The notes beneath the pieces were generated by a model. The model ran no database searches and was not told the DNA's origin. It worked only from the letters and a program-made list of their open reading frames with translations. From the NCBI GenBank assembly GCA_905178155.1, contig CAJINV010000005.1:3469902-3533901 (forward strand): 64,000 nucleotides of DNA, written 5' to 3'. This DNA is from Amoebophrya sp. A120 (taxonomy: Eukaryota > Protista > Dinoflagellata). Shown here piece by piece: positions 1,380-61,200 of this stretch. Each line of letters opens with the position of its first letter. Position 1 is the stretch's first letter. A program made the position numbers and the translations under genes.

Positions 1380-4300
1380 TCATTTCAAAACAACCGCCAA
1401 CCTTCCGGGAGCGGCCATTTCCAAGGCGGTCGGCCGTGTATTCGGCATGACCTCCGCCACGCCGTGAAACAAATCCCTACACTTATTGCCGAACACCAGA
1501 GCATCGCCGGACTTAACCGTGACCAGCAACTGCCGGCCTGAAGGGCCGCCCGCTCCAATTGCTCCGCCCGCTTTGCTCGCCGCTAGTTTCGACGAGGACG
1601 TCGGCGTATTTGTTCCCTGCTGGTCTAGCGACTGGGTTAATGTGTAGGAGATCTTCACCGAGTCGCCGATGTTGATGAGCACAACGGGCACGTCCGCCGT
1701 GTCCACGATTTCCTCCTGCCGTACATCCACCGTCGCTTCGGCACCGTGGAATTCCGCCCAACAAACGTCGGGGGAGAAGTTCGGAAGTTGCTCTGTAGTA
1801 GTTGTTATGCATTGCAAAAGCACCCCACTGCACTAGTATAGATTGCATCACAAATTTTGGCAAGAGGGGAAGTGGAATTTGTAATGCTGCTTTCCCTATA
1901 GGAAAAACATTTGCCACGCACGACATTTGCAATTAGTACGAGTGCGATACTTTTGCACAGGATAGTTGTCTTGCTGATGCTTTTGGTCGTACTCACAGCA
2001 GACGTACTCGTGTCTTTCTTTCCCGGAGTAGTGGACGAGGCTGCTGCCAGTAGAGCCGCGGTATTTTTCTGCTTTTTTTTGCTATTTTTCTCGGCGTTTT
2101 TTGGCGAAGGTGCTACAGGGTCTTTCTGTTTGAGCAGCACAAGATCGTCCACCCGCTCTTCTTCTGACCCACTTAGAGTTTCTGCGTAGGGGACGAACCG
2201 GTCGACGATTTTGGGGATCGCGTTATTCGCCTCCTTGACCGCGTGCTTAAACCACTTTTCCAACAACCCCTTCGAAATGTCCCGAATTTCGTCCCCCGCT
2301 TCCCACCGGTTGAGCCGGAAATTGAAGACGAAGCTACCGTATGAAATGTAAAAGTGTCTGGGTCCTCTGGAAGAATGCAACTTGTCATGCTAAATCTGAA
2401 GCATGCAAAAATTTGTGTTGCATGATTACCAAAAGGTGTCCAGTTTTGACCAAGTCGGGAGGGAGTTTCTCATGCAGGATAGGCATGAGAGAGATCGCGC
2501 AGAATCTGTCATGCTAGGTCCTGCATTCCGGACCTCATGGGTCATGGAAAAGCTGCATGACAAATCGCGCATTTTTCCAGACCCAGACATTTTTGCATTT
2601 GATATACCGAGACTCATGCGACAAACCTTCGCGGTCTTGGTCTTCAGGAACTTCTTGTTAATATCGCTCGTTGTTGTATCAGCTTGATGTTGTTGTGCTT
2701 GTTTGTCAGTTGATGTTGTCGTGGTGGTCTTTGAAGAAGAACTACAGGCTGTCGTACTGACGTTGCTGACCTGTTCCACGAAAAACCCGCCGTTGTTTCG
2801 TTGTGCGTTGCAAGCATCGGACTTCGCAGCTAAATAGTCGATTATCTGCTGTTGCTCGTTGATCGGAATCAAGTCGTGCAAATGGATAAAACTCTCCGCC
2901 AATCTGGCCGACGCCGTGAAGTTCGCCTTAAAAATTTTGTTGTTATTACGCTCGAGTTTTGATGCTGTTGACTCGGAGTGGTGGTCCAGCAGGTTTTGGT
3001 ACAGCTTTTGGTCCGATTTATTTTCTGCACTCGTGGTGGTCGCAGCTGCTTTGCTGGCGCTGTTATTTTCCGCTTTTGTCACAGCGTGGTCTGCACCACT
3101 CGAGGCCGGTCGCTCCTCTCGGTAAATGCCGCCGGTTTTTAGGTCAAATCGCAGATCATGTCTGGCTTCGAACTGCTGCGGCAGGCCCTGCGCCGGCCAC
3201 TTCACCGGGAGCAACGCTTTTTGCAGCGTTTTCAGAGTGTCTCGCGGTATGTCCCAGAACTTGTGGTCGCCAGACATTTTGCAGGGGACCGCGAGCTTCC
3301 GCGGGGTTTCCAGCCAGAAGATGTAGTCGGAGCTGTTTTCTTCCAAGTGAATGTCCTCTGCATCGTCTAAATTGTCTTCCGCCGTTCCTGCGCTGCCTGG
3401 CTCCTGCTCACCTCCATCTGCATAATTCGCCCCGCTACTACTTTGGTCGTTCATCTTCACTTTCCGTATCCCAAGCAGTTCCTGCTTTCTCCTCACCTTG
3501 TAGCTTTCGTTATCCTCAATGGACACTAGATCGACGCAACCGAGGATGCACCCGCTCGGGTAGCCGAGGCCGGATTCTGAAGGAAAAAGTGGGAGTTTCG
3601 GGTAGTTTCCGTACAAATTTTTGTAGTAGTCCTCCATTTGCGACACCGTTTCGTCCTCCACGTCCTTCATCGCGGCGTGAATCCACAATCTCCCGCGGTT
3701 GAAATGCTTATTTTTCCCGTCACTGTTCCACCCCCGCCCTTCCGCGCGCTTGAACCCGGCGACAATCAGCGACGCCCAGGGTTGGTGCAGCGAGAGACAC
3801 TTCCCTTCGTCCAGCGCGTCCGGAAAGAGCGGCTTGGGGGCCGGGAAGTCCTGCTGTGCTTTCGTACCATTTCTACTACCTGGGTTGTCCTGTTGATCGA
3901 CGTCTTCCTCTCTACTGCCGGCAGGATTGTCGTTTCTATCTTGGTGGTTGCTGTTTTTATCTCCAAACAGCGCCGCCTGATTCAGCGCGTCGTCGAATTC
4001 TCTGTCCTCATATCTTGGTCGATAAGCTGCGGTAGAGGAACTGGAGCCGCCTTGCTGCTCTTGCCCTCTACTTTTACTGCCTGTTGCAGCGGGCCCGCCT
4101 GGAGAAGACGACTTGACAACAATATCCTTCAACTCATCCGAGTACTGTGGCCCCCCGGCAGACGAAGAAGTGGATGGGTTTTTATTATTGTTCCGCGCGT
4201 TATCGCGCAAACTTTTCTGCAACGATTCGTACAGGTCCTTTGCGGGACCGACCAAAGCGGGCACGGAGGCCCCGTGCACCTTCTCGTAGTCGATTTGCTT

Positions 4301-6569
4301 GTTGTTTCGGCCCAGCAAATCCGTGCTGTCGAGAAGCAATTTCGAGTCCACGTCGATAAACTGCTCCAATTTACTCGCGTTGTCGGATTCCAACTGCTTC
4401 CCATCCGACGACTCCACGATCGTCCGGCCAAAGAAATCAACCGTGAGGTGGATTTTCCGCTTTTCCAGCTCCCTCTGCTTCCGGAAAATTTTCTCTTGCT
4501 TCTTCGCCTGCTCACGTGCGGACTGGGACAGCCAGGGGTTCTGCGCTTCCAAATACCAATCAGTAGACTCGTCGAACACTTTGGTTCTCTTCTGCGATTC
4601 TCTATCGAACTGCACCAATTTCTTCGCTTTTTCCACGGCTTTCTGCAGGGAAGCGATCTCCTCATCCGTTTTGTCAAATGCGATTTTGTCCAGATCGTCG
4701 AAGATCAGCTCGTTGCCGCAAAAAAGGCAGGGTCCGTAGCCCTCCTCTTTGCAGTTAATCTTCCCGCAGTGCAGACAGTTGGACAAAACGCCGTGCTTCA
4801 TGCCCTGGCAAAGACAAATGCGCCGGTTCTCTTGCTGCTTCTTTGAAGCTTTGGTGTGGGAGCCGGAGGTAGAAGAACTAGTACCGGTGGCGGGGGCGCC
4901 TGTGAAGGAGGTGGTGAGGGAATGTTTGTAATACTGCTTGAGCTAGGTCTGGAACTAGATCTAGAAGTATGAGGGAACTGGAGCAGCGTACATTCATCGT
5001 GTTTATTGCTTAGCCAATTTAAAGAGCCTGCGAATCTTTGATGTTTCTTTATGTTTTATCCCGTATCAGACTGAAAACTACTCGAGAGCGGGACTGAGAT
5101 CCTAGGTCATCGTCTCCACGCAAAGTTTGTCTTGCAGAAACTGCAAGACAACTTAATACCCGGAAAGACGTACCAGAGACGGCCTCTCTTTCACAGTGTC
5201 TGTTGTAACTTTGTGTTGCAGACGATGCAAGACACTTACAACGGGCATGCTGGATATGCGTCAGAGGCTCCTTTCGTACGTGTTTTCAGCTCCTAGCTAC
5301 GCATCACAGGTTTTCTCCGTCATGCAGAGCAAACCTGTGATGCTGTTCCTCCAAGAAAGTTACACTTACACAGTTTTTTCCTTGCATAGCACATTCATCG
5401 TGTTTATTCTTGCGTAGCCAATTTAAAGAGCCTGCGGATCTTTGATGTTTATGTTTTATCCCGTTTCAGACTGAAAACTACTCGAGAGCGGGACTGAGAT
5501 CCTAGGTCATCGTCCCCAAGCAAAGTTTGTCCTGCAGAAACTGCAAGACAACTTAATACCCGGAAAGACGTACCAGAGACGGCCTCTCTTTCACAGTGTC
5601 TGTTGTCATCATGCGGGAAATTATTATTATAAACAAGCGTAATACTACAACTAGTGGGTGCTTACTACGTACAATTCTACATCAGCACTCTAGACCGCAA
5701 AAGACGCACAGGGCATCTACTTTGTTAATATGCCCATGCAAAATACAAACCACCAAAATTATAGAAGTACCAGTCGCCAGCGCTGTAGCCTGCGAGCTGC
5801 AGAAGAAGTTCTGGCTCGCCCGCTCCTGCCGCAGTTTCTCCATTCTTTCCTTCTCCTGCTTCAAGGCAAATTCGTGTTTTTGCCGTGCCTATCCTGTGCA
5901 AAAGTATCGTACTCGTAGTAAACGCAGTTATGCATTACAAATCTAGTTGGTTAGGTAAATCCGCATTACACCTCTAATTTGTAATTATGCTGAGCCAATT
6001 TGTATTGCGATTTGTACTAGTACGATACTTTTGCAGTGCATAGTGCCGTCATTCCCTTTAATTTCGGGAAGTTCGCCTCCATCTCTTTTGTGTGCTGTTT
6101 CGCGGCGTGCTCCTGTAGAAGTTCAATAGGCGAGAAGAGTTTTTGTACCACTACCACGGAGCGTTTGAGTTTGTATTCTGATTCTGACTGTGTGATCATG
6201 ATTCTCATCATGCAGCCATCACAGGCCGTCGAGCGAGGTTTCAATTTACTCCTGGATGTCATGAAGGTCGTCATCTGTGTAGTGTTGTAGATTGTAAACA
6301 CAGAGTGACTACGACGACGAGCGCGAAAATTCATTTCTTACCTGGATCACTTGCGCCTCGAATTTTTTGTGCACCAGATTTTGACAGAAGGTGTAAGCCT
6401 CTCGGTCTTCGACACCAAAACTGACCAAAAACTGCTGCAGGTCGTTGTTCTCCTTTTCCAGCACCATCGTGACCACCTCGTCGCCACAATCTCCCACCAT
6501 ACGCATCAGCTCCTCTTTCGCCCATTTCAAGACGGGAGGTGGCAGGGGCTGTTTGCTCGGGTCGGTCAT
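1380..6569 (-). CDS. TRIP4: TRIP4/ASC-1 homologue (PWI-like N-terminus, zf-C2HC5, ASCH) fused to a C-terminal AlkB-like 2OG-Fe(II) dioxygenase fold, ~1165 aa, 6 exons
   Basis: Exons 6569-6342, 6112-6043, 5884-5771, 4899-2605, 2334-1965, 1800-1380 join in frame (3498 nt). Zinc finger CLCQGMKHGVLSNCLHCGKINCKEEGYGPCLFCG; ASCH CLSLHQPWASLIVAGFKRAEGRGW...RGRLWIHAA...YPSGCILGCVDL; AlkB-like PDVCWAEF...PVVLINIGDS...SGDALVFG...LFHGV...PGRLAVVLK. GT-AG introns at 6113-6341 and 4900-5770, plus three introners. Confidence 0.88.
1806..1964. mobile_element. Introner E1 (TIR family A, TATNNNNTGCAAAAG), 159 bp
   Basis: TAT...ATA ends, direct repeat GTTGT at 1801-1805 and 1965-1969. Removal gives ...SISKTTTTEQLPNF in frame. 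Confidence 0.88.
2340..2604. mobile_element. Introner E2 (TIR family B, TATCAAATGYAAAARTGTCTGGGTCTGGAA), 265 bp
   Basis: Direct repeat TACCG at 2335-2339 and 2605-2609. Removal gives RMSLGSFVFNF. Near-identical to E4 in the reverse orientation. Confidence 0.93.
4988..5606. repeat. Intronic direct duplication (~218 bp; 4988-5206 and 5389-5606) flanking a half introner (5204-5388)
   Basis: Two near-identical copies of ACATTCATCGTGTTTATT...CACAGTGTCTGTTGT. The spacer ends in TACACTTACACAGTTTTTTCCTTGCATA, matching the right TIR of E5. Confidence 0.9.
5890..6042. mobile_element. Introner E3 (TIR family A), 153 bp
   Basis: TIR TGCAAAAGTATCGTACT, direct repeat GTGCC at 5885-5889 and 6043-6047. Removal gives KGMTARQKHEF; can be read as a GC-AG intron. 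Confidence 0.92.
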
Positions 6570-8143
6570 TTTTTTCGTGGTTTGTAAACGTCTCCGGTTG
6601 ATGTTGTTCTGATTGTTTTATCTGGCTGGAAAGGAAATGACAGAAGCCCGAGGACAAAAATTAGCGAGGAAAATATTCAACGAGAGGAGCAATTCGGTAA
6701 GTCGTAAGTGGCTAATTGTGAACAAAATCAAAGGAGCAATTCTTTCATAGCAACCAATGGTAATTGAAATTGTGAGCAGAGCGACGAATATCTTCCTAAA
6801 ATGCTATAATAGAAATGAAGAAAGATACACACCAAAAACGAAACTTTTACTTCCTACTTGAGCACTATGTATGTAAAAACTTCACAAATTTCAGAAGAAA
6901 CGATTGCGCCATGAACGAAGGGACTGAGATGAAATTGGATCGAAAAAATCATTGAGCTCGGATGCTGTCTTGAATTCTTCAGAACTTTGTCTTTGAGTGA
7001 GGCGACCCGGCACACTACATCTTCCTTGCAGAAGTTCCTGAGATCTTCACACTTGGAGCATAAGCAATTCATCTTGCTTGTTTCTTGGCCGTGCATTGTG
7101 GGATGCGGAACATGCTACATTCCCTATGAGAAGTACTCACGGCTGCGCTGCTAGGAGCGCATCAAATATCCACTTCTGCCTTCGCGGAAGCGTCAATCCT
7201 AGGCTAGAAGCACAAGAAAGTGGTGAAAAGAAATCAAATTATTCGCGGAAACGGAAACTGTTGTCCTGCTTATTTTCATTCTACATGGGCATCTTGTTGC
7301 ATGACTTTGTTGCCGTGTCGAAGTAGAGTCCTCTCATTGGGGAAGTGATGTGTTCGCGAAGATAGATTAGTACTGTTTACGTAAGTGGAGAACTGAAACG
7401 ACCGGAAATTGCGAAACGTTGTTAACAGCAGGAGCGTGGTTGTAATGGTATTTTCGAACATACGAAGAATTGGACTTCACTGTAATTAAAAAAAGGCACT
7501 CGGGTGAAAAACAGGTTAGCTTGGAGGTTTGGTGAACAATTTTGTGGAAGTTCCAAAAGCGGTAATAAGGGGTATCAGTAACAGGGTACGCAGCTTGAGT
7601 TTTCCTAGCTGATTTGTCAGCGGGCAGGGTCGGTCTGGAAGAACTAGATTAGTTCGTGTTGAAGAAGCAAGCAGGGTGGATAAAAAGTTGGTTAAAAAAA
7701 GGTAAAAAGGATTCTTCATCTCGCTTTCGTGTCGGAGGTGCGTGTCGGTGGAAAAATGATACGTATACACAGTTGCTGTAAAGAGGTTAAAAACGTAAAA
7801 ATCAGGGCGAAATAAACGAGGCTCGACGCCGACGCGGCCGTGATTGAAACGGCGAAAATAAATATGTGGCATTTGCAAAGCGCAGTTCAAACGCTGAAAC
7901 GTGTGAGATCTTTCCGAATCGTATTGTAAATAAATCTGTACGTTGAGTATGTTCGATACATTTAGGTGAGCAATAGCGAGGTAGTGAAACTGATAGAACC
8001 CCTAATTTTATTTCTTCATTTGATGCTCGAAGATCGAGACCGCGGTACATTGGTATGTAAAACTTCTTGCGCTTGACACCTCTACTATAAAGATCAAGCG
8101 TCTTGTTGGTCTTCCTCTTCAAAAGCAGCAGCAACGTGCTTTT

Positions 8144-11100
8144 TCATTTCGCCTGTTCTGTCGGAGAAGATTTGGTCGAGGTCACAGCCAAGCCGGCTTG
8201 CTGCAGTTTCTATCAAATGCAAAAATGTCTGGGTCTGGAAGAATGCGCGATTTGTCATGCAGCTTTTCCATGACCCATGAGGTCTGGAATGCAGGACCTA
8301 GCATGGCAGATTGTGCGCGATCTTTCTCATGCCTATCCTGCATGAGAAACTGCCTCCCGACTTGGTCAAAACTGGACGACTTGCTTTGGTAATCATGCAA
8401 CACAGATTTTTGAATGCTTCAGATTTAGCACGACAAGTTGCATTCTTCCAGACCCAGACACTTTTACATTTGATAGTTTCCACTCCTGGTCCAAAGGTTT
8501 CTCTTGCAAGACGAGCTCGAACGGCCAGCTCACCCCGATCTCCACCATCTTTCCCCTCGACAGAGCGTATGCAAGAAAAAAACTGTGTAAGTGTAACTCT
8601 GTGATGCAGAACGGGCAAAAGAGTTACATCTGTCATGCGTCACAGCCATGAAGTCCTCTTTTCATGTGTGTTTTTCCTTATAAGCCGCACATGACAGGTT
8701 TTCTCTGTCATGTAGAGCAAATTTCTGATGCTGTCAGCCAAAGAAAGATACACTTACACAGTTTTTTTCTTGCATAGAGCGGACGACCCAACTAGTACAT
8801 CGGAGCTGTGGTGATCTCCGCTGTCAAAACCGCCAGGATCCCCCTTGTAATACACCAAGTGAATGGTTTTTCTGGTGGACCCGAGCGACAAGCCGCCGAC
8901 GGTGCTGGAGACAAAAATCTCGTCGCCGCCGTACCGAGCGTTCCTCTGCAGCTCCTTTATCACACAGAAAAAAGCAGGCAAGTCACATTTGTATATGCAA
9001 AAGCAAACTAACAGACTAATCTGTCATGGGCGACCCCACAGCATGCATGGCGCTTAGGACATGCAAGGCAATTTTTTGTTTTTTTGTCTGTTTATTTTTG
9101 CATTACAAATATGACCTGCCTGCTTTTTTCTCTGGGTATCCTTCTCAAATTCCATACAGTCGTCGAAATCCCACAAGTTGTTCACGATAAACTCAATTTC
9201 GCTGTCCTGCACGTAGGGGTGGCGCCCGCGGATGGAAATCTGTAGTTCCCAAGATTTTGTTGTGATGCATGTATGACAACGGCGCATATGTGTGACGCAC
9301 ACGATGTGTTGACCTCATAGAAAATGCAAGAGACAGTGCGTAGAAATTCATACTCACACGGTGCTGGTCCTTGTGCTGCGTGAACAAACTGCAAATGCAA
9401 TACCTGTAACGGATCGTATTCGATTTCTTCATCCTGTACGTCTGACAAGTCGACAAAACCGCTGCTGTTCTTGTGGTCTGTGCAGTTGTTTACAAAATTC
9501 GCCTCATTCTGTTCGCCTTTCTCCTCTTCCGCTGCGACAAAAATGGCGTCAGCTTTGCTGTCTTCGTTTTGCGCCGTCTTGGTTCTGCTTACCTGCAAGA
9601 TGTTCCTTTCAAGATTGTTACAATCGTGCTTGTCGTCGTAGTCGTTTTCGTTAACCCAAAAGGTATAATCAAAATGAGCGGTTTCATTTTGCGTGCGTTT
9701 GCCAAACAACTGGAAAAAACACCACCAGCAAATCGATAATGGTCTACTTGCAATTATATTGTAATTCCACAAGAACACGCATGAAGAATCAAAGTAAGAG
9801 CACGAGTACGTTCTCCGCACGGCTCGTCGGTGAGATCACGTCATCACCCTCGGCGTGGTTCGCTTCTGGCGTCTCTCCCTCTAGTCCCGCAGCAAGAACT
9901 ACATCCTCCTCGCAAAGATTGTCGCCGCCTTCCACAGACTCCGGCTTGGGGGTTGGAAATTCGTCCTCCTGCTCCTCTTCCTCATCCTCCACGACTACAG
10001 GCTCATCTTGAGCCTCAGCATCCGCAGGTGGATCATCTTGTTCGACGTCCTCACTTGCTGCTGCACGAGCAAGCTCTTCTTCTCCCTCTTCCGCAGCAGC
10101 CGAGGCAGTCGCTTCTTTCACTGGATCCCACGGCAACGGTTTTAGCAATCGCTTCATTCCCGGGAAATACGCATAACCGGACTTCAATTGCGGGAAATTC
10201 GTTGAAGGAGTTGATGTCGACGTTGCTGCAATGGTCTTTGAACTACAAATGGAAGATACAGAAGGAGCTCCCAAGCGCGTTGATGTCGTGAAAGCTGTCG
10301 TCTGCGCCAGAGGGACAACATGCGATGCTGTAGATGGTGAAGACTTTTTGACACCTGTCAACGCAATCACTTCAAGCGGACTTTTCAACGACACACCATC
10401 CGCGACGTCTACTGGAGATTTCGAAGCAGTCACTGCGTCGCGAGCCGTGGTCCGGAGCTGGATATTTTATTGAAGTTATTTGACTTTCTTTGTTACACGC
10501 AGCTCCACCTACACGAGAGTCTCTAAGTCGCTGCATCACAATCAAAATTGTTGCCTTTTCATCCTCCAATCGGAACAATTATCTTCAATCAACAGATTCA
10601 TGAGTACCTTTTCCAAAAAGTTTGTCTGCAGCAACTCCGACGACCTAGCTGATGAGGTATTTTTCGAGGCGGCCGCGCCGGCGCTTGTACAACTGGAACT
10701 GGTGCCCGCTGTCACGACTACGCTACTAGACAAACTACCCATGGGCGCCGCCCAGGGCAACGCGCTCCGGAGTTTTTGCGCTGGATTCGCCTTCGTGCTC
10801 TCAAACACGTAGTTGTGTAAATTCTGGTGCAGCAACACCTTTGCCTGTTTAGTCGAACTCCTACTGCACTCGGCGGTAGTGGGGAGGTCGGGGGTTGAAA
10901 ATGGTGCGAGAACTTGTTCCGCAGCTTTGTCCTCACCGTCTCCATTCACAGAAGATTCCGGCGGAGCAACAGCATCAAGATGTTTCGACGCAGTAGAAGA
11001 AGAGTCCCCCACTTCAACAGGAAGAGCGACATCCTCTGTCTTTACCTGTGTGGAAGATGTTGTTCCTGGAGAAAAATGCAGCGACGACCTTACTGGCTGT

Positions 11101-12007: not shown

Positions 12008-15000
12008 CTACTTGTCGCCGGCCGTAGCCGCGAAATCAGTCGCGTGCTTCGCATACCAACTCGCCAGCACATCAGCCTCGATCCACTCCTTCGCGCCCCG
12101 GTTCTCAAAGAGATGCAACGTGCTGTCCGCCTCCGCAACTGACATGACGACAAACTTCAGCGGTTCGTCGGGTTCCAGTTCCTCACCGGCAACATCGGCA
12201 GAGCGAGGGATTTCTTGCGCCGAGTCCTCCTGCTCCAACGAGGACGTGGGACGTGCAGTTGCTGCAAGTCCTCCTCCAGTGCTGCGGGTCCCCGCTGTTC
12301 TGGGCCGCTCCTGCGTTGTAGTCCTACTGCTTTTGGCAACCAATCGCACCGCCGCACGGACGGCGTTCCTCACATGCTCCACGTCTTCATCTTCGACGGC
12401 CAATATGGCGCGAATGTTTAACCGGTCAGCCCACTTTTCGCAGCGCATCAGCATGTGCATCTCGGTTTGGAAAAGCCAGCGCCGCAACCCCGCCGAGGAC
12501 GTCCACGAAAACCTTTCGCGAAAGAGAAGGCTCTGATTTTGCGCCCAGGAGGACACGTCCACCACATCTGCCAGCACTAGCACTGGCATATGACCCGGAC
12601 CCAGGTCCTGACGCAGATTCGTGATGGCGCTCGTGGTAGCCTGACGCACCATGCCACCAAGCCGGCCCTTCCAGCCGTGCGCGACGCAGCCCGCGTTCTT
12701 TAGTGCGTATTCTTTTGCGACGTCCCACATGTGTACACTTTCGCCCTCCCCCGTGCACTCATGCCTCTTAAAGGAAAGCGGCGCCGCGGCAACAACGTTC
12801 TGGCGGGCGTCGGCAGTCTTGTTGTAGCCCTTCCCCGCCTCGTCCATCTGCGCACGCTCACCACCGGCAAAAGCAATCCCCTTTCGTTCCAGGAACAACG
12901 TGCCGGCCAGTTGCGCGTTGGTGAAGAGAATCGCAGAAACGACATGGTAAATGGCTGCCCCTGCAATCGCCCAAGGGCGTGGAAAAGTCAAGTCTTCACT
13001 TCTGGGCCTCAGCAGCTCAAGAGCTCGACTGGCAACCGTAGTCGGCGCGACCGTCTCGTTGGTATGTTCCTCAAGCAGATCCACAAACCACTGGAGGGCC
13101 GAAAAGCCCCAGAAACCAGAGTCCGCAGGAGGCGAAAGGCGGGAGCGCGCTTCCAGGGTTGATTGCGCCAAGGCGTAGTACTTCTCGTCCAGGTATGGTG
13201 GGTCAAACGCTTCCACAAATCTATACCACGGCCACCCGGTATCTTTCTTGCCAAGCGAGGACACTGGACTGCGCTTGATCAATTCCCAGTATTTCCGTGC
13301 CAGATTCCGGGCCTTCACTTCATCCACGACTGTGAGAAACTGTTCCCCCTTTGCGATCCTCTCCGGCATGGACGTTGCTTCCTGGACGTACCACTCGGAA
13401 GTAAAACTAGTGGACGCATTGTACATCGGGCGAGGAGACGAGGACCGAAGCTGAAGATCCCTGCCTCCACGCGCCGGCACTAGGTGACTCGCAGTATTAT
13501 CATCATCTCCACGAAGTGCATTCGCTGCGAAAACAGTTGCCACCCAGCTGAAAGGAGACCCGGAGAAGAATGCCTTCGGCGAGACGCACAGGACAGAGGT
13601 CCGCTGATGCCCCTTGATTTTTATTGTTTCAGATGATGAAGCTGCGTCTCTACTAGTATGATCTCCTCCTGCAGCTGCTGCCTCTTTCGCCGCCTGCAAG
13701 TCAGCACTGGACAAAGTCCCAACCTGGACGTCGTCGCTGCTCTGCTCTTGGAACTCACAGTTGTCCGCTTCCCCCTGCAGGACCTGTAAACTGATTTTCG
13801 CCGACCTGTTAAATTCGCGCGCGAGCTCTGCGTTGGCGATCCGAAGTTGCTCTGCAATAGGATTTATCAACTGCTGCAAATATCGTCGTGTCTGGGTCTG
13901 GAGAAATGCAAATACAGGACAAGTTGAAGTTCTTTTTCATGCCCGCGTCCAGAATTATTTAACGGCTGGGCCTGGGCCGCGACGCCCCTTCTGCTTGAAA
14001 AACCCGTAAAACGGTACTTACTAGCGGCACTAGCCACCTACTTAACAAACTCTAGCGGGGCGGAACACGTTTGGCAAACTCTCGGCGGAACGCAGGAGTT
14101 TGTCATGTTGAAAGGCTGAGGGCAGGGCAGGGCGCAGGAGTTTGTCATGCAGGTTTTGGACCCCCACCACATTAATGCATGGTGTGGAATTGTGCATGCG
14201 ACAGCGCTACAGGTTTGGCGCAGGAGGCCTCCTGATGCCTGTCCAACATGAGAAATACGCTATTTGCGTAGCAGTAAATGGACAACTTTTCTAGGCGCTC
14301 ACGCAACTACACAAGTTTTTGTGTATACAGAGGCTTTTCTTTTCTTTTTGTGTGGTTATCGTCACGCCCGATCCCCCCTGTACGAGGATGAGTCGGTAAG
14401 GCGCGACGGCCTTTATACAACTGCGACTGAGAGCTCGCCTCTTCTGCATCATAAGTTTGCGCCCACCTTCCAGACCGAGACAAACAATTTCCAATCCATA
14501 GGGTTTTTCCACCGGACGAAGTCGCAGATCTCGTTTTTGCACATGGATGCAAAGTCAGTAGTTGCCGCTTCACTCGTCGTCCGTTGTGAAGATCGTCGAC
14601 TTGTTGCTTTAGCGCCGGCCAACAAGAGAGGACCGCTTTCGACGTACGCCGCTGGCAGCGGCTGTTGATCCTGCTGCCCCTCGTCGCTGGACGACGCCAC
14701 TCCTGCGGCTTCATCGGAAAAGTACACGGACTGCGCGCTCGCGCGGAGATGATGGGGGTCAAGGTCATCCAGGTGTAGTTGCTGACCATCCAAGTTGTAG
14801 GCGCGTGGTCGTGTGGTCTCACCTTCCGCGGACTCCCGGTAGTTCTTCCTCGTGCTAGGCGGTTCGAGGAAAGCTACGCCATACTGGTCCACCCCGACAG
14901 CGACCTTTACGGGAGAACTTTGTGACGTTCTTGCAGCGTCGAGCGCAGGTGCTGGCGGTAGAGAACCGCTTTCGACGCTTTGCAGCAGCACTGGGCCAGA

Positions 15001-15912: not shown

Positions 15913-17357
15913 TTATGAGTTACTGGTACTAGTAGCGACCGGTAGCCCGCTCTTTTCATATTCCAGCCAACTTCCATCGAAAAGCGACACTGTCGGTTTT
16001 GCCTTCCCCTCATGCGCGCACACCACCTCCGCGGCCAAGGCAACAATACAGGCTGTCATGCCGGAGCCGCAGGTAACGACGAAGGGCTTCTCTACATCGA
16101 CATTCTTTGTGTTAAAAATTTTTTTCAATTCTCCCGGCGATTTCAATTTCGTTCGCTTTGTCGGTGCAGATGATATCATCTTCAGACCGTCCTTCGTAGA
16201 AGTTGTAGTTGCTTCCTCGTGGTCCCTCACGTCCAACAACTCCAGAAACGGCACATTTGTTGAATTCGGAATGTGTCCACTCCGCATTCCGGCCCTCGGC
16301 TCCGCCGCTTCTCCCGTGAACCGCCCAGCCGGACGGGCGTCCAGGATCGTCGTGGTATCTTGTAGAGAGGTTCTTTCCTGCTCGTCAGTAGTGCAGCTGG
16401 TGATTTCCTGAATATCCGCCAGGGATGCGACGGATTTGTTTTCCTTTTCGGCGTTCGTTTGTTCCGCAGATGAGGTTGTTCCTCCAACAGTTGTGTACTC
16501 CTCCACTGGTTTCGCGACTGTGGTTCCAGTTGTTCTGGCAGTTGTACCAGCTACACTCCCTTCAGCAACGTCACCCCCGGCCTCCACCCACTCCGGCAAG
16601 CCACCGTCCAACACAAAAGTGTTCCTATGCCCAAAGAACCGCAGCATGTACCAAGCCCGCGCCGCCGAAAACAAGCCGTGCCGGTCGTAACAGACGATCG
16701 AGTCTTCCGTGCTGATGTTCAAAGACCGCATGTAGTTTTCGAACACGTCTCTACTCGGCATCATGTGGGGTAGTTCGCTTTTCTCGTCCGCGCACTCGTC
16801 CAGGTCGAGAAAGGCGGAATTTGGTACTATTCGGTTGAAGTTTTGGTAAAGCGACTTCGCCGACTCGGCCGCGAACGGGCAAGCGAAGGGGGAGTTGGGC
16901 AAATACCACGTCGCATCGACGAAGACGAGCGTGGGGGTATCAAATGTAAAAATGTCTGGGTCTGGAAGATTGCCAGGTTTGTCATGCACATTTTGCATGA
17001 CTCCTGATGTCTGTGATGCATGCCCTAGCATCACAGATTTTGTGAGGGCTTCCTGATGCCTATACCGCATGACAAATGCTCTTTCCGTGTAGCAAAACTT
17101 GGACAGGACTCTCTTTGCTGCTCATGCAATACAGATTTTTTTAGGATCCAAAATCAGCATGACAAGTTGAATCCTTCCAGACCCAGACACTTTTACAGTT
17201 GATAGGGGGCATCGCGGGTTGATGTAGTTCCAGCAGGAGACGAGGCAGTCGCAGACGCGGCCATGGAAGCCGCTAACTTTTCCTTTGCCCATTGCACAGA
17301 CACTAACGGTGAGGACCCGGGTGGGGGAATGAGCGAGGACGTCATTTTTTTCATCAT
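15913..17357 (-). CDS. MPST: 3-mercaptopyruvate sulfurtransferase (tandem rhodanese), 390 aa
   Basis: PLVSVQWAKEKL...LVFVDATWYLP, LPHMMPS, SAARAWYMLRFFGH..VLDGGLPEW, ILDARPAGRFTG..AEPRAGMRSGHIP, active-site loop CGSGMTAC, LFDGSWLEY. One introner; exons 17357-17205 and 16932-15913. Confidence 0.95.
16938..17204. mobile_element. Introner E6 (TIR family B, diverged interior), 267 bp
   Basis: Direct repeat GGGGG at 16933-16937 and 17205-17209. Removal gives STRDAPTLVFVD. Confidence 0.93.
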
Positions 17358-36440: not shown

Positions 36441-36611
36441 GTGCAACTACGAACACACGTGGCCATCATGTAGACGGCGACACAAATGCCGCTGCAACTT
36501 GTTTGTAAGCGGCGACTCGTGCTTGTCCGTGCAAATGCTAGGCATCAATACTCACCGAGGACTCAGAAAATGAGAAACAACACACACCCACGGTCGTGCT
36601 TTGCAACTAGA

Positions 36612-42993: not shown

Positions 42994-44574
42994 TCAGCCC
43001 CCCGGAATCTTCTGGCTCTTCTCCTGCTGCAAGGTGACTGACACTTCCGCTCCCGTTTTCTTCCGCACAAAGGGTTTTGTCAAGTGCCACTTCTCCTTGT
43101 CGCCGTCGCTGAGAACCCCGTTTTCGGTCGGCAAAGTCCCTCCGTCCGGCCCCGGTTCGTCTATTATTGCCGGGGTAAACATCTTCCCAGACAGCTGCGC
43201 CTCTTCACTAGTTTCGGCTCCACTCCCGCCGCGCCTCTTCGACAACAAGCTTCCGGGGATTCGTTCCGGCACCCCCAGAGGCACGAGCACCTGCCCCCGC
43301 CCCGGCCGGAACCCGATCGCCCTTATCCTTTCCTTCGGCGGTAGGATCGGAATACACGGTGCCGCCGCGATTTGCGCAGCGGACAAACCCATGCACGGCT
43401 CCCCCCACGGCTCTCCCTCGTCTAACACCATGTGGACCGTGGCGCCGCGGTTGTAGTACTCGACTAGAACGTCCAAGGTGTGCACGCTGGTGCTGTAGTC
43501 CGTTTCGTTGTTCGGTTTTCCCGCCCGAGGTGTCTCCCACCCCGCTGGTAGATGTGTCACGTTCGAGGAGAAAGCGGAAATCGCAAAGGTACCGTTCACA
43601 CTGGAGTCGTTGTTGTCGTAGTGGTCCGTGTTAAACGAATACTCCATCCCGGAAAATCCAATCAACACGATCGCAAACCCGGTGCCGTTGATCGCCGACG
43701 GTTGCACGTACTGTATCTTCGACCGGTCGATCACCCAGCTCTGCCCGTCCAGCGCGTAGGTTCGGAAGGGTGAGGCCCGGAGTTCATTTCCCTCCCCTTC
43801 GCAGCTGTAGTAGTCGTGTTCCGGCGCCAGGTTCACCTCGCCCTCGCAGGTCCCGAGGTTCTCCAGATCCGGATCGCGCATCACAATGTTGTTGATTTTC
43901 CACTGCATCGGACGCAGGAACGGATTGTAACCGAGGGTCGGAATCATATCTGAGAGTTTTGTACAATAGGAAGATTTGTGGCTGCGTATAGCGCTTGTGA
44001 TCAATACTTGTGCCTGACATCAAACATGCATATGCAAATATGATGACTATACCAAAGTGCAAAAACTATACGTGTGTGTATCCTGATCGTGGGCGTTCCG
44101 TACCGGCAGTCATGCTCTGGGTTGTTACACGGCATAAACCCAAACTTCTCCCACCTGTCGTTCGGTGCTAACGTTAGATTTTTCCCCCACGGCATGAGAT
44201 ACCCGTCCAACATGGCGTGTATCTTTGTGCGGTTCACCGGGTCCCGGTAGAACTGCACAAGATGGGGTCTCCCATCCGCTATCACGTCGTTGTTCAGCGG
44301 TATCGATTCGTCATCGTACGCTTCGCTCGGATCGATGAAGTACTCCGTGTAATTGACATCGTCGCGCTATAAGAGTGCACCACTTCGTCCCCTCCCCCTC
44401 ATTTTGCGATGCAAAATACCAAATCCATTCCTTGCCTGCCTTTCCTTTTGGCACTTTTTGCATGACAGGTTTTCTTGGCAGCTCAAACAGAACTAAAGTC
44501 ATGGGTCGTGAATTCGTCATGCAAAACCTGCACTCTTGCCGGCGCTCGTATCGCTGCTCATGCCATGCATACAA

Positions 44575-44609
<35 letters not shown>

Positions 44610-47453
44610 GCGTCGAAAATGTCTTATTGGCCGAACGCTTACTGCGTGACCTAGTGCTTCCATACAAAAACACTTTCCGCTGGCGCACCCTCTTGGGTAT
44701 CCTAAAGCGAGTTACACCGTCCGGCGTTGTTCTCACTTTGTAACGAGGACCCCGGGATGCGTACCTGTTGGCGTCTCCCAAATGAAGGGGAGTTGAAGTT
44801 GTGCACCCTCATACGGCCTCCATGTGCCGAATCGTTCTCCGCGTCACCAAAAATCGGTACCGCTGGTGGTGCTCGTCGCCCTTCGCCACGCTCATCTCTT
44901 TCATCCTCTTCGTGAAATTCACGTCCTCACTGTCGAACGTGAAGGTGTGCGTCGTCGTCCGGTTGAACTCCGGCCCACTCAGGTCGGTGGTGTTGGTCCA
45001 AATTTGAAACGCCGCACCGGAATCAAACATTTCGCTGCCCCAGTGCGAGTGCGCACTCAACTCGTTGATGTTCAGTGCGGTGAAAAAGACCTCGATCCGG
45101 TCGATGTCGATCTTCGGCCAGAGAAAGTCCGGTCGTTCCGGGCGGTACCAGAGGGACAACCCCGGTACGGCGTGCATGTCCAAGTGACGAAACTCGGTCC
45201 GCCAGTCCGGTTTGCGGGCGAGAAAGTAGGAGCCCTCGACCGGGTCTATGCCGCCAAGGTGCTCGTCTTCGGAGAAGGACATCGGTTCTATCTCGTCCCA
45301 GTAAACGTCTGCGGGCTTGTTCAGAGTGGCGTTGGTGTAGACTAAGAAATCCAAAGGGGGTGGGGACGTTGTGGTCGTCGTCGGGCGCTTGGTATTGATG
45401 TAGGAGTCGTACTTGAGGGAGGTCATGCAAGTGCATTTGTCCGTGAAAGCGTAGGAGGGATCGCAACTGTTGTAGACCGGCCAAAACCTGTACAGCTGCG
45501 CGTTCCAGTCGTGGTAGCCACCGCTGCCTTCCCTGTGTTGTGTTTTTATCATGCGCTACTTATTGCATGATTGGCAGCTGCATCGACTTGTCATGCGTAG
45601 GCCGCGCCTTTAGAGAATAGATCAAGATGGAAGTAAAGCTCCTTATCACACGACTTGATATAATACCACACAGTAAACCCCGCGCAGTTGTCGGAATCCT
45701 GCATGCACTTCGCTATTCCTTCATTTCGTGCGTGTTCACCACTTGACTGCTCAATCACCCGTCTCAGTGGGTATTCCGAGTCAAAGCACATCTGTCTGTG
45801 CTTAAAAGCGTACTCACCCGCGCCCGCACCTGCTTTGATGTTCAGCTTTTTCCTTGCTTTCTCCTGCGCGGCGAGAACGGCTTCGGTTTCAACGACGTTT
45901 TCGCTTTCTCCTTGTGCTTCTTCGGCTTCAATCTTGTGTTTGTGGTTTTTCTGCGACGATAACCTCGACGCAGCTTCCCCTTCCGCTGCTCTAGTGCTTT
46001 TTGCAGTTTCTAATTCTGCGCTTTTGCTCACTAACGATGGATCTGGAGGCTCTTTGACGGATTGTGTGACTACAGAATCACTGTTCGTTTCGCTTCTCAT
46101 CCTCTGCGCACCACGACCGCCACCAGCTCTTATCTCCTCGTCTTTGCTTTTCACATGTGCTTTTAACTTTTCCAGTGATGTAACGCCCTCCTGTTCGTGA
46201 TCCTTCTCCGCATGAGGATGCAATTCTGCTTCATGATCATGCCCCCCTGTGGTCGGTTTCTCTTTCTTCTGTTTATCATGCTCGGTATTAATCGCGGAAC
46301 CGTGGTCCTCCTGCCCTCCTACCACCACCCCACCTTTCTGGAGGTACTCCTTCAGCTGCTGTCTCCGGTGCAAGATTTCGCTGTACGAGACCTGGTTCGC
46401 GTTCGTTCCGCCAGCCCTGTGCACCTCTTCCCCCGGTTTTCTCCTCGCGATTTTTAGCGAGATGGTTTTCTCGGTCAGGGAGGGGTCGTCCGCGAAATCT
46501 AAATTGTCCCGAAAGATTAAATCGTCCTCTTCTTCCTGCGTCAGAGGCGGTAACTCGCTGTCGATGATATCAGATCTTGACGGAAGATCTTCATACACAC
46601 CATCAGCATCATCGGCCCACAGGTTTTCCGGCAGCTGCGCCGAGTTCATTTTCGAGATCTGCTCCTGCCACAACCGCTCCTCCTTGATCTCCTCTTCGTG
46701 GCCCCATCCTTGACTACTGGAAGACGGGTAGCTGCCGTGCTTTTTTCTGCCGATAATCGCGGGGCCGGCTTTCAAAACGGTGTCTCCTGGGGTGGTCCTT
46801 GGATAGCTTGTGACCGAAGTGGTTGCGAGGAAGTAGAAAGTTGAATGTTTGAAAACGAGCGCACAAGAAGCAAGGACGGCAGCTTTCGTAGTAGGTCGAG
46901 TGAAAAGCTGCAAATGCGCTGTTGTCGCTCCGGGAGGTCGTCGTCGACGGCGGCGACGGAACCGCGAGGGGTGATCGACGGCTTTTGGCGTTGGCCTCGA
47001 AGAATTTCTACCAACTTGAACTTTCATCGTCGTGGCGACCGAGCTCACCACCGCAAATGTGGTTGTGTCTTTGCCTTTGCTGTTTGGTCTTCTTCTCCTC
47101 CTCCGGTTTTTCAGGGTTCTTGTTTCCTCGTTTATTTCGTTTTGAATTTGCAATTTGGACGCACGTCGTCGCCCGCGCAACGCCGACCACTGCGTGCTGT
47201 TGCCCACCGCGTCTTCGTATTTTGTGGTTTTTTGACGCGAGCTGTTACAACGGCTGCGGGTCCTGGAAGGAGATGAGGGTGTACTGCTCGAAGTAGAGCA
47301 ATGGTGCGAGCTTGTGCTTGCGCTCGAGGGATGGCTTGGCGAACTAAACATCCTATGTTGTCTTCCCGGTACGCGGGTAGGGCCGTCCGTTCCTTCATCG
47401 CTCGCCGTGTTGCTGGAGCCCGCAGCTCGTCGCCTTTCGGCAACCAAAGTCAA
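42994..47453 (-). CDS. Hypothetical, probably membrane-anchored or secreted protein (~1,250-1,280 aa) with a Cys-containing PAN/apple-like segment
   Basis: Exons ~47453-45603, 45555-44815, 44553-44541, 44362-44072, 43949-42994 join in frame. Hydrophobic stretch AAVLASCALVF..STFYFLA, many NxS/T sequons, KCMQDSDNCAGFTVW. Start codon uncertain. Confidence 0.65.
44368..44540. mobile_element. Introner E8, 173 bp, one terminus decayed
   Basis: TIR AAGAGTGCA; left end TAT, right end GCC; direct repeat CGCGC/GGCGC (4/5 match). Removal gives RYERDDVNY. Confidence 0.8.
44575..44607. repeat. (ATG)11 microsatellite in intron 44554-44814
   Basis: Read directly. Confidence 0.95.
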
Positions 47454-55900: not shown

Positions 55901-57371
55901 GCGGGCATCGTGGTGGCGGGCGCATCACCAGCCGCAGTATTCCTGCTGGTTCGCGGTGTTTTGCTTCTACTTCTCACGTCACTGCTTCTACCTCCTGCAG
56001 TTGCTCCTGTCGCGCCACTGTTTCGACCTACTGCCGCCGCTCCGGACGAGGATGAGGAGGAAGAGGAGGATGATCCACTTCTTTGCGGCGGCGGGGGCTG
56101 CTGTTGGACCGCATGTAGTTGACCATGAGCTCCTCCAGCGCCGGGTGCTGCAGCAGCGGTTCCACCCACCGCCCCTCCGGTCATCCCCGAATCTACACGG
56201 CTTTTCACATGCCTGTAGTGACCACTCGACGCCCCGCCCCCGCCGCCGCAGCTGACCGACCGGGCCCTTGTGTGAAACTGCTGGTGGTTCAGCGCGTTTT
56301 GGATCCGGGCGAGGGACGGCTTGTTGTTTTCCTTGTTGGAGATGCTGGTCGCGGTAATTTTACCAGGAGTAGGGTCGCAGCTAGTGCCGCTTATTTCTCC
56401 GACCGGTGTTGATGTTGTGCTGGCAGGTCCTGCAGCTACTGACGCCAACTCCCCCGGCTTCACGTTCTTCAGTGTTTGCTGGCTCTCGGGCAAGGAAAGG
56501 ACAGCCTCCTCGGCTCCTGCCGGATCCGTATGCACTGCAAAAGTATCGCACTCGTACGAAAAGTAAATCTATATGCGTCGCAATTATGCATCACAAATCT
56601 GGCCGCCGCGTTCTGCATGAATATAAACGACATACTTCAATTTTGTTCTTGAGAAGGTTTGTCATGCGATTTGTACGTAGTACAACACTCTTGCATTGCA
56701 TACTCCGGTTGCAATAAAGATGTTTCTCCACCCGCCTGCTCACCACGCGCCACCATTCCGGAACCAGGGGCCCACGTGGCGCGCTGCGCCGGAAGGTTGT
56801 GCTCAGCATCGGACGCTTGCTGAGGTTGGACCTATTTTTTCATGGTTTCAGAACGAGACTAGATCAGTTTGAAATAAAATCGACTGTGCACCATCCGAAG
56901 TTCGAGTTCTAATGTTGCTAATGGTTGCCGTGCAGTATAGGTCCTGAAGAGATGAACTTCTTTAGCATGAGTTGGGTTGCATTCCATTAGATCCAAAATT
57001 TTGGTTTTCACCCACCATGCACGTACCTTCCTGAGCTGGGGATGCTTCCGTTTCAACAAAGCCAGCCGGCTGGTTGTCGGTGTCTTGCTCACTGGTAATA
57101 TTTCGACCGGTCTTGGTGGTGCGGTAGGAGCTTCGGGTGGCGACGTGGCAGTTGTGCCAACTACGGGAGCAGCTGGTGCCCCAGGAACTACAGTGTCCTG
57201 CTCTTGATGTAGTTGCGATATTAAGAAAGCCGCTCCAGCATCATCTCCTTCTCCGGCCGGTGGTCTGCTGCTGGCATTGTTCGCGTTCCAGTGAACCAGA
57301 ACTGGACCTGCGTCGAGAAGCGGCGCTGGGTGGTGGTCCATCCCGGCCACAACCGCGTCCACGATTTCCAT
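52979..57371 (-). CDS. Zinc finger C2HC (zf-C2HC_2, ZC2HC1/FAM164-like motif) protein, ~1176 aa, 5 exons
   Basis: Exons 57371-57027, 56831-56703, 56523-54652, 54452-53879, 53589-52979 join in frame (3531 nt). RIACPHCNRNFNKEAAARHIPRC. Confidence 0.82.
56529..56702. mobile_element. Introner E9 (TIR family A), 174 bp
   Basis: TATGCACTGCAAAAGT...ACTCTTGCATTGCATA; direct repeat ATCCG/CTCCG (4/5 match). Removal gives LLQP(D/E)PAGA. Confidence 0.88.
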
Positions 57372-58278: not shown

Positions 58279-61200
58279 TCAAACTCTGTCCTCGACTGGC
58301 GACACCGGAGGGAGCGCTGCGCGGTAATCGTAGTCTTCATCGATTGCAGCTTTTTGCTGCTGTTGCAGTACGAATTCTGCAGTCCGATTCGAGGGATCGG
58401 CATCTTGATCGTGTTCCTGCTCCCCCGATAGCTGTGCAACTGGTTCGCGGCTACTGGCCCCACCTGACTGGTGCCCCCGCAACACAAATTCCTTCGCGTT
58501 TTTCAGCGCCAGCTTTCCCATCGGGTGCACCGTGTACAGTAACTGCCCGACGTGGCACATCTCGTGGTAGATCTGCAAGTCCACGCTCAGCCCACACTTC
58601 GCCATCAACTGCGCTAACTCGACGTGAATGTCCCGGAGCACCTCCGTTTCGCCGGACTGGATCAGGATCTCGATGGGCTTATTAACGACCTGCTTTTTTC
58701 GTCCGACTTCATCTTGTGGCGAAGAAATTGTACTACCAGTCGTAGCAGTACTACTAGCGGGGGGACGTTCTTGTGGTCTTCTATCCGACAAGAAGTTCTG
58801 AAACGCGTACACACTGGACAGCACTGGGTCCTCGAAAGCCCTGTTGCAACTTCTGGCAATCCCGGAAGCAAGCATTTTCACCGTTTCCGGGTGAATCATG
58901 TCAGTTTGCCGGTTGGACACAAAACTCGGCGTTTTCTTTTCGTTCGCACTTTGGTCGGCCCAGGGGGAGAACAGAATCGCTTTGCCCGGGAGGGCGAGTT
59001 TGTTGTTCTGCTTTTTCATCATGATCTTCGGAGCTGCACCGATTTTTGTGCTCGCCGGTTCATCTTTGCACTGCTGAACAAGCGTCAACGGGGCGATTGT
59101 TGCGTTGATGTTGGGAGAAGCATTTTCGTTCGCGCTGTTCTCTATGTCAATGAGACCACCGACGTCTCCGTCACCGTCTAAGAGAATGCCGTCCTCTGGT
59201 ACAACCAGATCCTCTCGTGGAGAGCAGAACTCGAGGGATTTCTGGTCATCCTCATCTTCCGAAAAGAAATCCTTCTCGTCCTGCTCCAACAATCCCAACT
59301 TGAGCAATAACTGCACGCACAGCTGCCCGCCGGCGGAATCTCCGACCAAAATGATGTTTTCGCAGGGCACAGATAACTCCTCTATCCTGATTAAAAACGT
59401 CCCCACACCAGAGTCAAGATGGGGATTTTGCAACACAAACCTAGGAGTTTTAGGAGTCACGCATGACAAGTTTCAGTCCGTAAGGTAGTGCAAGTTAGCA
59501 AGGAAAGCCGCATGACAAATCGACCTTCTGATCCTGTTTACAGCATTACAAGTTCCCAAACACGATTGAAAACGCCTGTAATGGGGTTGCGCATCACAAA
59601 CGTTCCTGTCATGGCAAATCTGCATGACAACTCTGGGGTGGGGGCGTTTTTACATTTGATATCCTCGACCAGAAACCTGTAGACCTGCAGCCCATCTTCC
59701 ACCGCACACTCCACATCGAAATCCGGCGGTCTTCTGAAATTCGCCAGGAGCGCCACAAAATCACTGCCGCAATTGCGGACCAACCAGGCCAGCAGCGCGG
59801 TGTTCGCGCTGTCCGCGTCGCAAAACACGAACGCGCCGCCGTGAAAGTAGAGAAAAACCTTCTGCCGCGCGGGGTCGGGGATCACGAGTTTTCCGAGTTC
59901 GAGATTTGAGTAGACTTTTTTCTTATCGAAGTTTTTCTTTTCCGCTTCTTCTTTCGACCAGAGCCAGTAGTGCCGGACGTGGGCTTCGGCGACGGAGGTT
60001 GTTGTCGTTGTACTGATAGGAGGCTTTGACTTTGTAGTAGTACCTTTATTACCAGTTGCAGCTCTTCCCGTCGGGGATCCAGTGCCAGTACCAGTAGCAG
60101 TACTTGGAGACAGTAATTGCCTGATATTATCATCGTCGTTGGTATCAGCGATGGATCCCGACTGGAGTTTCTTCGCGAACGCGATACTGCTCGTAATCCC
60201 GTTATCCGAGACGCTATGAAAGCCTCAGGTTGGAAATCCTCAAAGTGGAAATATTTTGTAATGCAAGAAAACGACTCCCGTTGAATCGCCATTTCTAGTC
60301 GGCGCATGACAAATTTTCCGGGCACTCAAAGCATGTCTGTCATGCTAGGTAGGCAAAGGGGTGCCCTTCTCTCGTGCTAATCAGCAGCCCAATTCTGAAC
60401 CCCTAGCAGGACAATAGTCGGTCTCCATTGCGTCCTCTGCAATACAGTCTTTTTTGCCTTGCATTTCATGCATCACAAATTATTTCCACTTTGAGGATTT
60501 CCATTCTGAGGCTTTCATAGACGCACGGGTGGGCGGACTCCACAAACCCGCACTCCATCCAAAAAGACGCTTTCTTATCAAAAGAAAAAAGTTCGTCACG
60601 ATCACTCATGGGCATTTTTGCAATACAAAATTGTCTGTCATGCGTAAAAATGCATCACAGCCACACTTCATAAGGGATTTCCCTAGTGTTTCTGCAATAC
60701 AAGGAGAAGTTGTGATGCTAAAAAAATTTGTAATGCAAAACCTGCAACTTGGTGACTGTGACAAACTTTTTTCTCTCCATATTTCTGGAGTTTGCTGTAG
60801 TAGGGGAAAAGAAAGCTAGGGAGCGTCATGTCGGTCAGGAAGCGGTAGAGCCGGACGTTCAGTCTGGACAGCGGATCTAGTCGTAACGTTTTCAAGGCCG
60901 TGAACAACAGCCGGAGCAGCAAAACGTGGTAGAACCCGTTCTGCCGGTCCTGCTGGGAGAGTAAAATGTCTACAGGCTCGGGAATGCGGTAGTGGTACAG
61001 TTTCTCCAAGTCAAATTCTTGCTCGAAGGGAAGAGATTCAGGTTGGTCTTCTTTGCTCTTACTTCGGTTTCGCTTCACTTTACTGCTGTTACGCTCGTCT
61101 CCCGCCACAGTCGACCTGTCGTCATTTTTACCAACAGCAAGAGCACCACCAGCATTGTTCTGAGACTGAGGATTTTTACCACGATGGTGATCTTCATCAT

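Follow-up and report, generated by a model that had tools for sequence, protein, structure and literature searches.

The window analysed here, a stretch of 64,000 nucleotides from contig CAJINV010000005.1 of the dinoflagellate Amoebophrya sp. A120, carries most of its long open reading frames (ORFs) and all four of its Pfam-matched genes on the minus strand. Thirteen short elements with terminal inverted repeats (TIRs), together 3,042 bases, interrupt ORFs in this window, and a motif found inside all of them, GCATBACA (that is, GCAT(G/C/T)ACA), is the subject of this work.

Introners of the window and the motif inside them

The elements start with TAT and in most cases carry a run of A at positions 11-14; on either side lies a 5-bp direct repeat, the target-site duplication (TSD), which is perfect in 11 of the 13. 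Most fit a terminal signature of TAT, seven variable bases and at least three A, those at 44368 and 60215 being without the A-run, and the set matches the published signature of Amoebophrya A120-type introners (PMC7789003). Contigs from four sequencing runs (X1-X4), which represent one sample and presumably RNA, contain joints at which 11 of the 13 elements are skipped as the element plus exactly 5 nt, which is the removal from transcripts without fixed GT-AG ends that characterises A120-type introners. Several of these contigs skip GT-AG introns too, and 11 such introns (2,721 bases) are defined by them in the window. The element at 5890 is not among the joints listed, and the one at 26978 lies outside the two stretches compared, an open frame spanning the junction suggesting its removal.

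Being short, non-coding, multicopy, bounded by TIRs and a TSD, and polymorphic in insertion, the elements have the properties of MITEs (miniature transposable elements with inverted repeats), or non-autonomous TIR DNA transposons. Insertion polymorphism is seen in two comparative loci, L056 and L057, which are orthologous to window positions 142-11446: the elements at 5890, 8211 and 8568 are absent from L056 and one TSD copy is absent with each, leaving empty sites. Because these three elements are missing together with one copy of the repeat, their insertion is recent and the duplication measures 5 bp. The insertion at 8958..9138 is also present in L056, with its motif intact.

GCATBACA has 47 matches on the two strands of the window, against a mean of 5.56 and a maximum of 10 in 100 shuffles. 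The 13 TIR elements hold 34 of these matches and the 11 GT-AG introns five, two of them in a nested element relic, leaving eight in the remaining 58,237 bases; each of the 13 elements has at least one copy (Table 1). A first-pass annotation of the sequence, which had proposed that elements with different TIRs carry this motif in common, is thus borne out, down to the examples that it quoted at 1845+/1880- and 2383-/2555+ (a further copy lies at 2507-) and its counts of two copies in 26978-27110, five in 59383-59661, and four each in 60215-60519 and 60576-60781. Its other motif carriers need redefinition. The supposed 47-nt intron at 45556-45602 is the interior of a 134-nt GT-AG intron, although the match at 45589 is real, and the relic placed at 14100-14150, which does hold a motif at 14143, was loosely drawn and is made up of fragments left by a decayed member of the commonest family (~13889-14324).

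Table 1. Features of the window that carry the motif, with + and - giving the strand of each copy; "joint skips" is the number of nucleotides missing at the transcript joint.
Feature	Position	Ends and TSD	Motif copies	Transcript or comparative evidence
Introner, family 1	1806..1964	TAT...ATA, GTTGT	1845+, 1880-	joint skips 164 (element + one TSD)
Introner, family 0	2340..2604	TACCG	2383-, 2507-, 2555+	joint skips 270
Family-2 relic within GT-AG intron 4900-5770	5194..5398		5301+, 5336-	
Introner, family 1	5890..6042	GTGCC	pair 5932+/5963+ (31 bp)	L056 empty site, 158 nt missing
Introner, family 0	8211..8475	GTTTC	8253- (strict)	joint skips 270; L056 empty site
Introner, family 2	8568..8776	GAGCG	pair 8600-/8631- (31 bp)	joint skips 214; L056 empty site
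Introner, family 12	8958..9138	TAT...GTA, TCCTT	9100+ (strict)	joint skips 186
Canonical GT-AG intron	9240..9403		9261- (one copy, sense strand)	transcript joint
Canonical GT-AG intron	10458..10607		10533+ (one copy, antisense strand)	transcript joint
Decayed family-0 pieces	13889..14334		14143- (strict)	BLAST pieces; no joint listed
Introner, family 0	16938..17204	GGGGG	16980-, 17012- (32 apart), 17028+, 17067+, 17157+	joint skips 272
Introner, family 7	26978..27110	GCAGC	27022+, 27070+ (both antisense to gene)	
Old, enlarged family-5 derivative	44368..44813	degenerate TSD	44460+ (strict)	joint skips 451
Canonical GT-AG intron, 134 nt	45533..45666		45589-	contigs X1-X3 join 45531 to 45666
Old family-1-related introner	56529..56702	TSD with one mismatch	56588+, 56660-	joint skips 179
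Introner, family 3	59383..59661	TCCTC	59461, 59510, 59543, 59591, 59622	joint skips 284
Introner, family 6	60215..60519	GACGC	60257-, 60304+, 60338-, 60470+	joint skips 310
Introner, family 9	60576..60781	TTTCT	60636-, 60652+, 60711-, 60729-	joint skips 211

Two elements display the arrangement of copies well. In 59383..59661 all five strict copies are antisense to the gene, with pairs 33 and 31 bp apart and the last copy 40 bp from the end, and in 60215..60519 the outer copies lie 50 bp from either end. The old element at 44368-44813 has a short decayed TIR and an ATG microsatellite, and its removal is still exactly the element plus 5 nt. The family-2 relic sits in an 871-nt intron, flanked there by a duplicated stretch of ~200 nt (4990-5170 and 5392-5600).

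Enrichment, conservation and geometry across families

Comparison beyond the window drew on at least 146 loci (607,548 non-redundant bases) retrieved from one metagenome assembly with a TIR pattern 21 bases long from family 0, the commonest; their source is a close relative of the window organism. A detector of TIRs plus TSD found 373 elements in the loci and nine in the window, and zero in block-shuffled loci; with four window elements added by hand the set comprises 386 elements, of median length 258 nt. As the detector demanded TA(T/C) ends and a 5-bp repeat, these features are present in the loci by construction. The elements form 32 clusters, with 13 multi-copy families, from which 20 representatives were kept. 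The 12 singletons dropped are nested, enlarged or variant derivatives, artefacts, and an unrelated 866-nt element (L022:11405-12270), which ends in TAC, has long TIRs and a 5-bp repeat, is without the motif and constitutes a different TIR family; three of the dropped clusters (18, 19 and 24) have no motif. Composite or nested elements occur at L066:9991-11021, L017:505-1608 and L013:1604-2035, where the outer ends of neighbours share a TSD-like repeat. Sequence classes in the loci follow a simple gene model, which recovered five of the 11 known window introns exactly. In the 51 gene-modelled loci a predicted exon lies on both sides of 242 of 276 classified elements, though exons make up only ~58% of the non-element bases.

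The 20 representatives contain 54 strict copies, compared with 1.2 in dinucleotide shuffles, and 19 of the 20 families are positive, so the excess over background composition is real. The 8-mers GCATGACA and GCATCACA are common to most families, and the refined profile reads GCA(T/A)(G/C/T)ACA(A/G)(A/G)T (in its 10-letter form GCA(T/A)(G/C/T)ACA(A/G)(A/G)), with A in place of T in 21% of sites. Strict matches number 814 in 68,149 element bases, 25 in 259,162 exon bases and 14 in 82,930 intergenic bases. Over the 51 loci, window included, the density per kb falls from 11.9 in elements and 7.7 in relics to 1.3 in GT-AG introns predicted with confidence and 0.42 in the remaining predicted introns, and further to 0.17 in intergenic DNA and 0.10 in exons, which confirms an earlier impression by eye that exons are poor in the motif. 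A at positions 11-14 is shared by 31-37 of the 40 ends of the representatives.

Within families the motif is also the best preserved part. Among 314 copies, private substitutions affect 207 of 8,089 positions in the motif core (2.6%), 556 of 13,293 in the TIR (4.2%) and 1,821 of 26,947 in internal DNA (6.8%), so that the earlier claim of stronger conservation than the TIRs holds. Copies close to the ends have changed least (1.9%), and the degenerate positions, at 5.3%, vary like internal DNA. Change in the motif is near the level of TSD mismatch (2-4%) and higher in decayed copies (19/461), the pattern that selection acting chiefly at transposition would produce. Pairs of elements at the same site number only three and are nearly identical.

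The first-pass annotation had called the families unrelated. Alignment by BLAST is indeed largely lost once the motif is masked, 26 representatives going from 6 to 19 linked groups; however, a more sensitive test finds that 15 of 190 family pairs retain some resemblance outside the motif and the termini, so that remote common ancestry is possible and "unrelated" is too strong. The 20 families merge to six groups when weak links are included, or to 14 with only links of z>6.5, and on these comparisons they are divergent, perhaps remote relatives. The motif might then be nothing but an inheritance from one ancestral element, devoid of present function, a view with which the shared end signature, the common TSD length and the 15 linked pairs agree. 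Inheritance does not, however, account for a motif core that, within families, changes 2.6 times less than adjacent DNA, a constraint from which its degenerate base is exempt, nor for spacing kept between dissimilar spacers. Ancestry as the sole cause is therefore largely refuted and very improbable, ancestry combined with selection being likely.

The spacing in question is that of copies on the same strand: of 83 such pairs, 22, spread over 14 of the 20 families, show a separation of 31-33 bp (null mean 2.5, maximum 8 in 5,000), the spacers inside these pairs being 35% alike compared with 31% when shuffled. After merging to six groups the excess is still present, with six of 22 pairs in five of the six groups (null mean 0.8, maximum 5 in 3,000). 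Distance to the end is restricted as well: of the nearest outward-pointing copies less than 70 bp from an end (n=26), ten lie at 39-42 bp, 11 at 48-52 and three at 60-63, with none at 43-47 or 53-59 and the other two at 34 and 68. This phase relative to the ends departs from a jitter null at P ~0.002 when each of 17 families contributes a single value. In family 1 and its relatives 29 and 31 the near-end copies point inward. Distances between copies on opposite strands are not significant when convergent (P 0.27) and marginal when divergent (P 0.017), and a lattice built on them was dropped. The notion that terminal bases 4-13 are themselves a degenerate motif copy was also abandoned: the offset is the best on average, with only 8 of 40 ends scoring >0. 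What is found is a short motif repeated inside the ends under constrained spacing, as in subterminal sites, and this geometry of 31-33-bp pairs and set end distances is the new part relative to published descriptions of introners.

How the motif may be read, and by what

Since the elements leave transcripts as introns, the motif could act in RNA. As a single-stranded signal it would be an extended branch site with a U-N-A-C core, or the site of an RNA-binding protein, present on both strands to serve splicing in either orientation; its degenerate base coincides with a degenerate base of the branch-site consensus, and TNACA lies 20-60 nt ahead of the AG in several GT-AG introns of the window. 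The strand data nonetheless make this idea most improbable. Strand could be assigned with confidence to 284 of 371 elements, although one of the ten such assignments in the window was wrong. Strict copies number 396 sense and 462 antisense in 283 elements, 61 of which are without a strict sense copy, and a sense site by position weight matrix is missing in 28 of 279. In family 3 one strand carries every strict copy; six of its insertions are in sense and 14 in antisense (P 0.12), and its member at 59383 is removed although it offers only antisense strict copies. The tolerance of A in place of T counts further against an RNA signal. In 85 relic-free GT-AG introns there are seven sense and 11 antisense matches with no positional peak, instead of the enrichment on the sense strand 15-60 nt before the 3' splice site that a spliceosomal branch site would show, and the branch-site idea was rejected on these grounds.

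Alternatively, left and right copies might lengthen a TIR hairpin, so that the motif would work as double-stranded RNA and a reader of structure plus sequence would remove the intron. A left copy and a right copy often lie equally far from their ends, and the elements fold as long hairpins (z -3.7 and -3.3). TIR positions 16-28 are 65-90% self-complementary and only 30-60% conserved across families, with a slight excess of G-U over A-C (121 vs 86, P 0.018, in one of four zones). In private substitutions, however, the G-U bias is not significant (P 0.38), the representatives of families 3, 7 and 25 hold internal copies on one strand only, and the degenerate base of copies in register is equal in 45% of 110 pairs, against 45% expected if the two were independent. 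A role as double-stranded RNA is thus not supported and there is little likelihood of it, whereas the suggestion that the inner TIR is family-specific pairable sequence is suggestive only. A role in RNA binding or as a branch point is disfavoured, since sense copies are not in excess and complementarity between left and right copies is not maintained; the behaviour of the motif is that of a sequence recognised on double-stranded DNA. The common trans-acting factor that had been proposed from the first reading survives in its transposase-type, DNA-binding form, which fits the spacing, its RNA-binding form being disfavoured.

The reading that we consider probable, at about 0.6, is that one putative protein, a transposase or a host DNA-binding cofactor of it, mobilises all families in trans and recognises the motif by its sequence on double-stranded DNA. 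Such a protein would bind two sites three helical turns apart on the same face of the DNA, with the 31-33-bp spacing as a dimer-like ruler, and would be held in phase with the TAT-N7-AAA end. TIR positions 16-28 would be free to differ between families because recognition would rest on the motif and the short end signature, and their self-complementarity may separately bring the intron ends together in RNA. By analogy, TA..TA ends and a 5-bp duplication offer a lead towards an integrase-fold DDE enzyme similar to Ginger or IS3EU/GingerRoot.

Several points weigh against this proposal. Among 30 window ORFs and 130 selected locus ORFs no transposase or integrase domain was found, and PMC7789003 reports none in A120. 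Choosing loci by the TIR of one family over-sampled family 0, which supplies 172 of the 386 elements. Counts of private substitutions mix changes from before and after insertion, so selection for transposition and selection by the host are inseparable in them. The fit of the period is broad (R 0.73-0.74 from 9.5 to 10.5, and 0.69 at 11), and the representatives are without pairs at one or two turns, which indicates a fixed ruler more than general phasing; families 1, 28, 29 and 31 have no outward copy in the three distance classes. Finally, intact 31-33-bp pairs occur in predicted GT-AG introns without TIRs. Of eight such regions tested only two can be traced to element families, six being untraced, and those in the loci are predicted introns without transcript support. 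No autonomous element with the same ends appears among long TIR pairs or the 160 ORFs, a sample of <<1% of the genome, and the family-0 TIR pattern is unmatched in viral contigs.

The TIR-less pairs lend themselves to a different explanation: the spaced pair would be recognised by a DNA-binding protein of the host, which would label introns on the template and call in the removal machinery as transcription proceeds. Introners would owe their success to these sites, in a lineage that reportedly has no U1. Confident GT-AG introns hold the motif at 8-fold over expectation (21 vs 2.6), as against only 1.8-fold in intergenic DNA (14 vs 7.6), and in the 85 relic-free introns 18 sites are found where shuffling gives ~1, four of five same-strand spacings being 32-33. 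The motif is better conserved than internal DNA even in the most diverged copies, and all of the DNA-geometry evidence is compatible with a host mark. On the other hand, a strong site is present in only 13 of the 85 introns, sites per element are hardly different in non-coding and exonic contexts (4.19 vs 4.48), several old and apparently exon-flanked elements have 0-1 sites, the old element at 44368 is removed exactly with one strict site, and the two TIR-less regions that could be traced are diverged element derivatives. A host mark therefore seems unlikely, the intact pairs in TIR-less predicted introns being the reason why it is given some weight. Quite doubtful, too, is a reading that joins both roles, in which a host protein reads the bipartite 31-33-bp DNA code and through it both moves introner families by the thousand and designates introns for U1-less removal, old introners becoming GT-AG introns that keep the code.

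The two traced regions are candidate introner-to-canonical-intron conversions: a predicted 160-nt GT-AG intron at L027:1731-1890 is a diverged element of family 1 that has lost its TIR but keeps three motifs intact, and an intronic region at L025:14040-14200 is a diverged family-5 element. TIR-less pairs in general may be old introners turned GT-AG introns, or sites kept by the host. All 11 transcript-defined donors in the window begin with GTA, nine of them with GTA(T/C), equal to G plus the element end TA(T/C) (e.g. 9240-9403 and 43950-44071), and an element inserted after G yields a host-type donor. A start of N plus TAT would fit the GT/CT/AT/TT-rich donors listed for one A120 family in PMC12130899. 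A polypyrimidine tract is not evident in the window GT-AG introns.

Other features of the window concern its wider sequence. Positions 142-5634 (~5.5 kb) are 98% identical to L056/L057, with several 500-base blocks at 99.6-100%, whereas identity over the following 6 kb is 82-97% by block, a contrast that suggests a recent shared haplotype or exchange. GC-rich (68-72%) intergenic blocks at ~34700-36400, 41000-42300 and 48100-50300, in which the motif is almost absent, gave no Pfam match in the ORFs tested and no Rfam match, the Rfam scan of the window as a whole returning zero. At the place of window position 6141, L056 has a GC-rich insertion of 1.5 kb, and such blocks are possibly another class of mobile element.

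Relation to known introners and transposons

According to PMC7789003, Amoebophrya introners number tens of thousands and fall into about two thousand families; they have spread without any recognised transposase, and their removal is U1-less. If one shared, spaced DNA site is used by all of them, these families would collapse to clients of a single machine, for which the site is a bait. The motif gives a way to recognise old introners that now look like ordinary GT-AG introns, and if its binder were a host factor needed for removal, it would constitute an unusual DNA-level intron mark.

The same paper describes A120 introners like those of the window, non-canonical introns whose TIRs consist of TAT, seven variable bases and AAA, with short direct repeats (5 bp in the legend of Fig. 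S19) and co-oriented gene blocks; its passages and supplement text, as far as covered here, give a terminal motif only, with no internal shared motif or spacing rule, and it argues against general mobilisation of introners by transposases. The A120 families in PMC12130899 are likewise mostly TIR DNA elements, of unknown superfamily there, apart from family 38, annotated as 'Ginger, 5-bp TSD, TA/TA termini' with integrase-like homology. No shared internal site is given in 56 of the 58 A120 rows, and in the main text 'motif' occurs once and 'subterminal' never. In the main-text passages and supplement text covered from the literature on Amoebophrya and introners, neither the motif nor its spacing is described.

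Among transposons with integrase-type enzymes, IS3EU/GingerRoot and Ginger2 come nearest, with a short TSD of the integrase kind (PMC10045372 and PMC6839031). IS3EU/GingerRoot elements share the TA..TA termini, but their duplication is 6 bp and not the 5 bp seen here in joints and empty sites, so that the introners are not classed as members. Ginger elements end in TG..CA, and no transposase gene was seen here.

The closest precedents for the architecture are the subterminal transposase sites of the MITE Emigrant and Lemi1 (PMC1636448) and the helical-pitch spacing of the TnsB transposase sites of Tn7-like elements (PMC10201428), in which several short sites inside the ends are bound cooperatively with a spacing tied to the helix. 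In those systems the transposase has been identified, and the sites echo a portion of a single family's TIR. The introners, in contrast, carry one motif across different TIRs, usually pointing outward and paired at 31-33 bp, in elements that double as introns; the feature itself is strongly supported and would be a subterminal binding-site architecture of novel form inside a known introner system.

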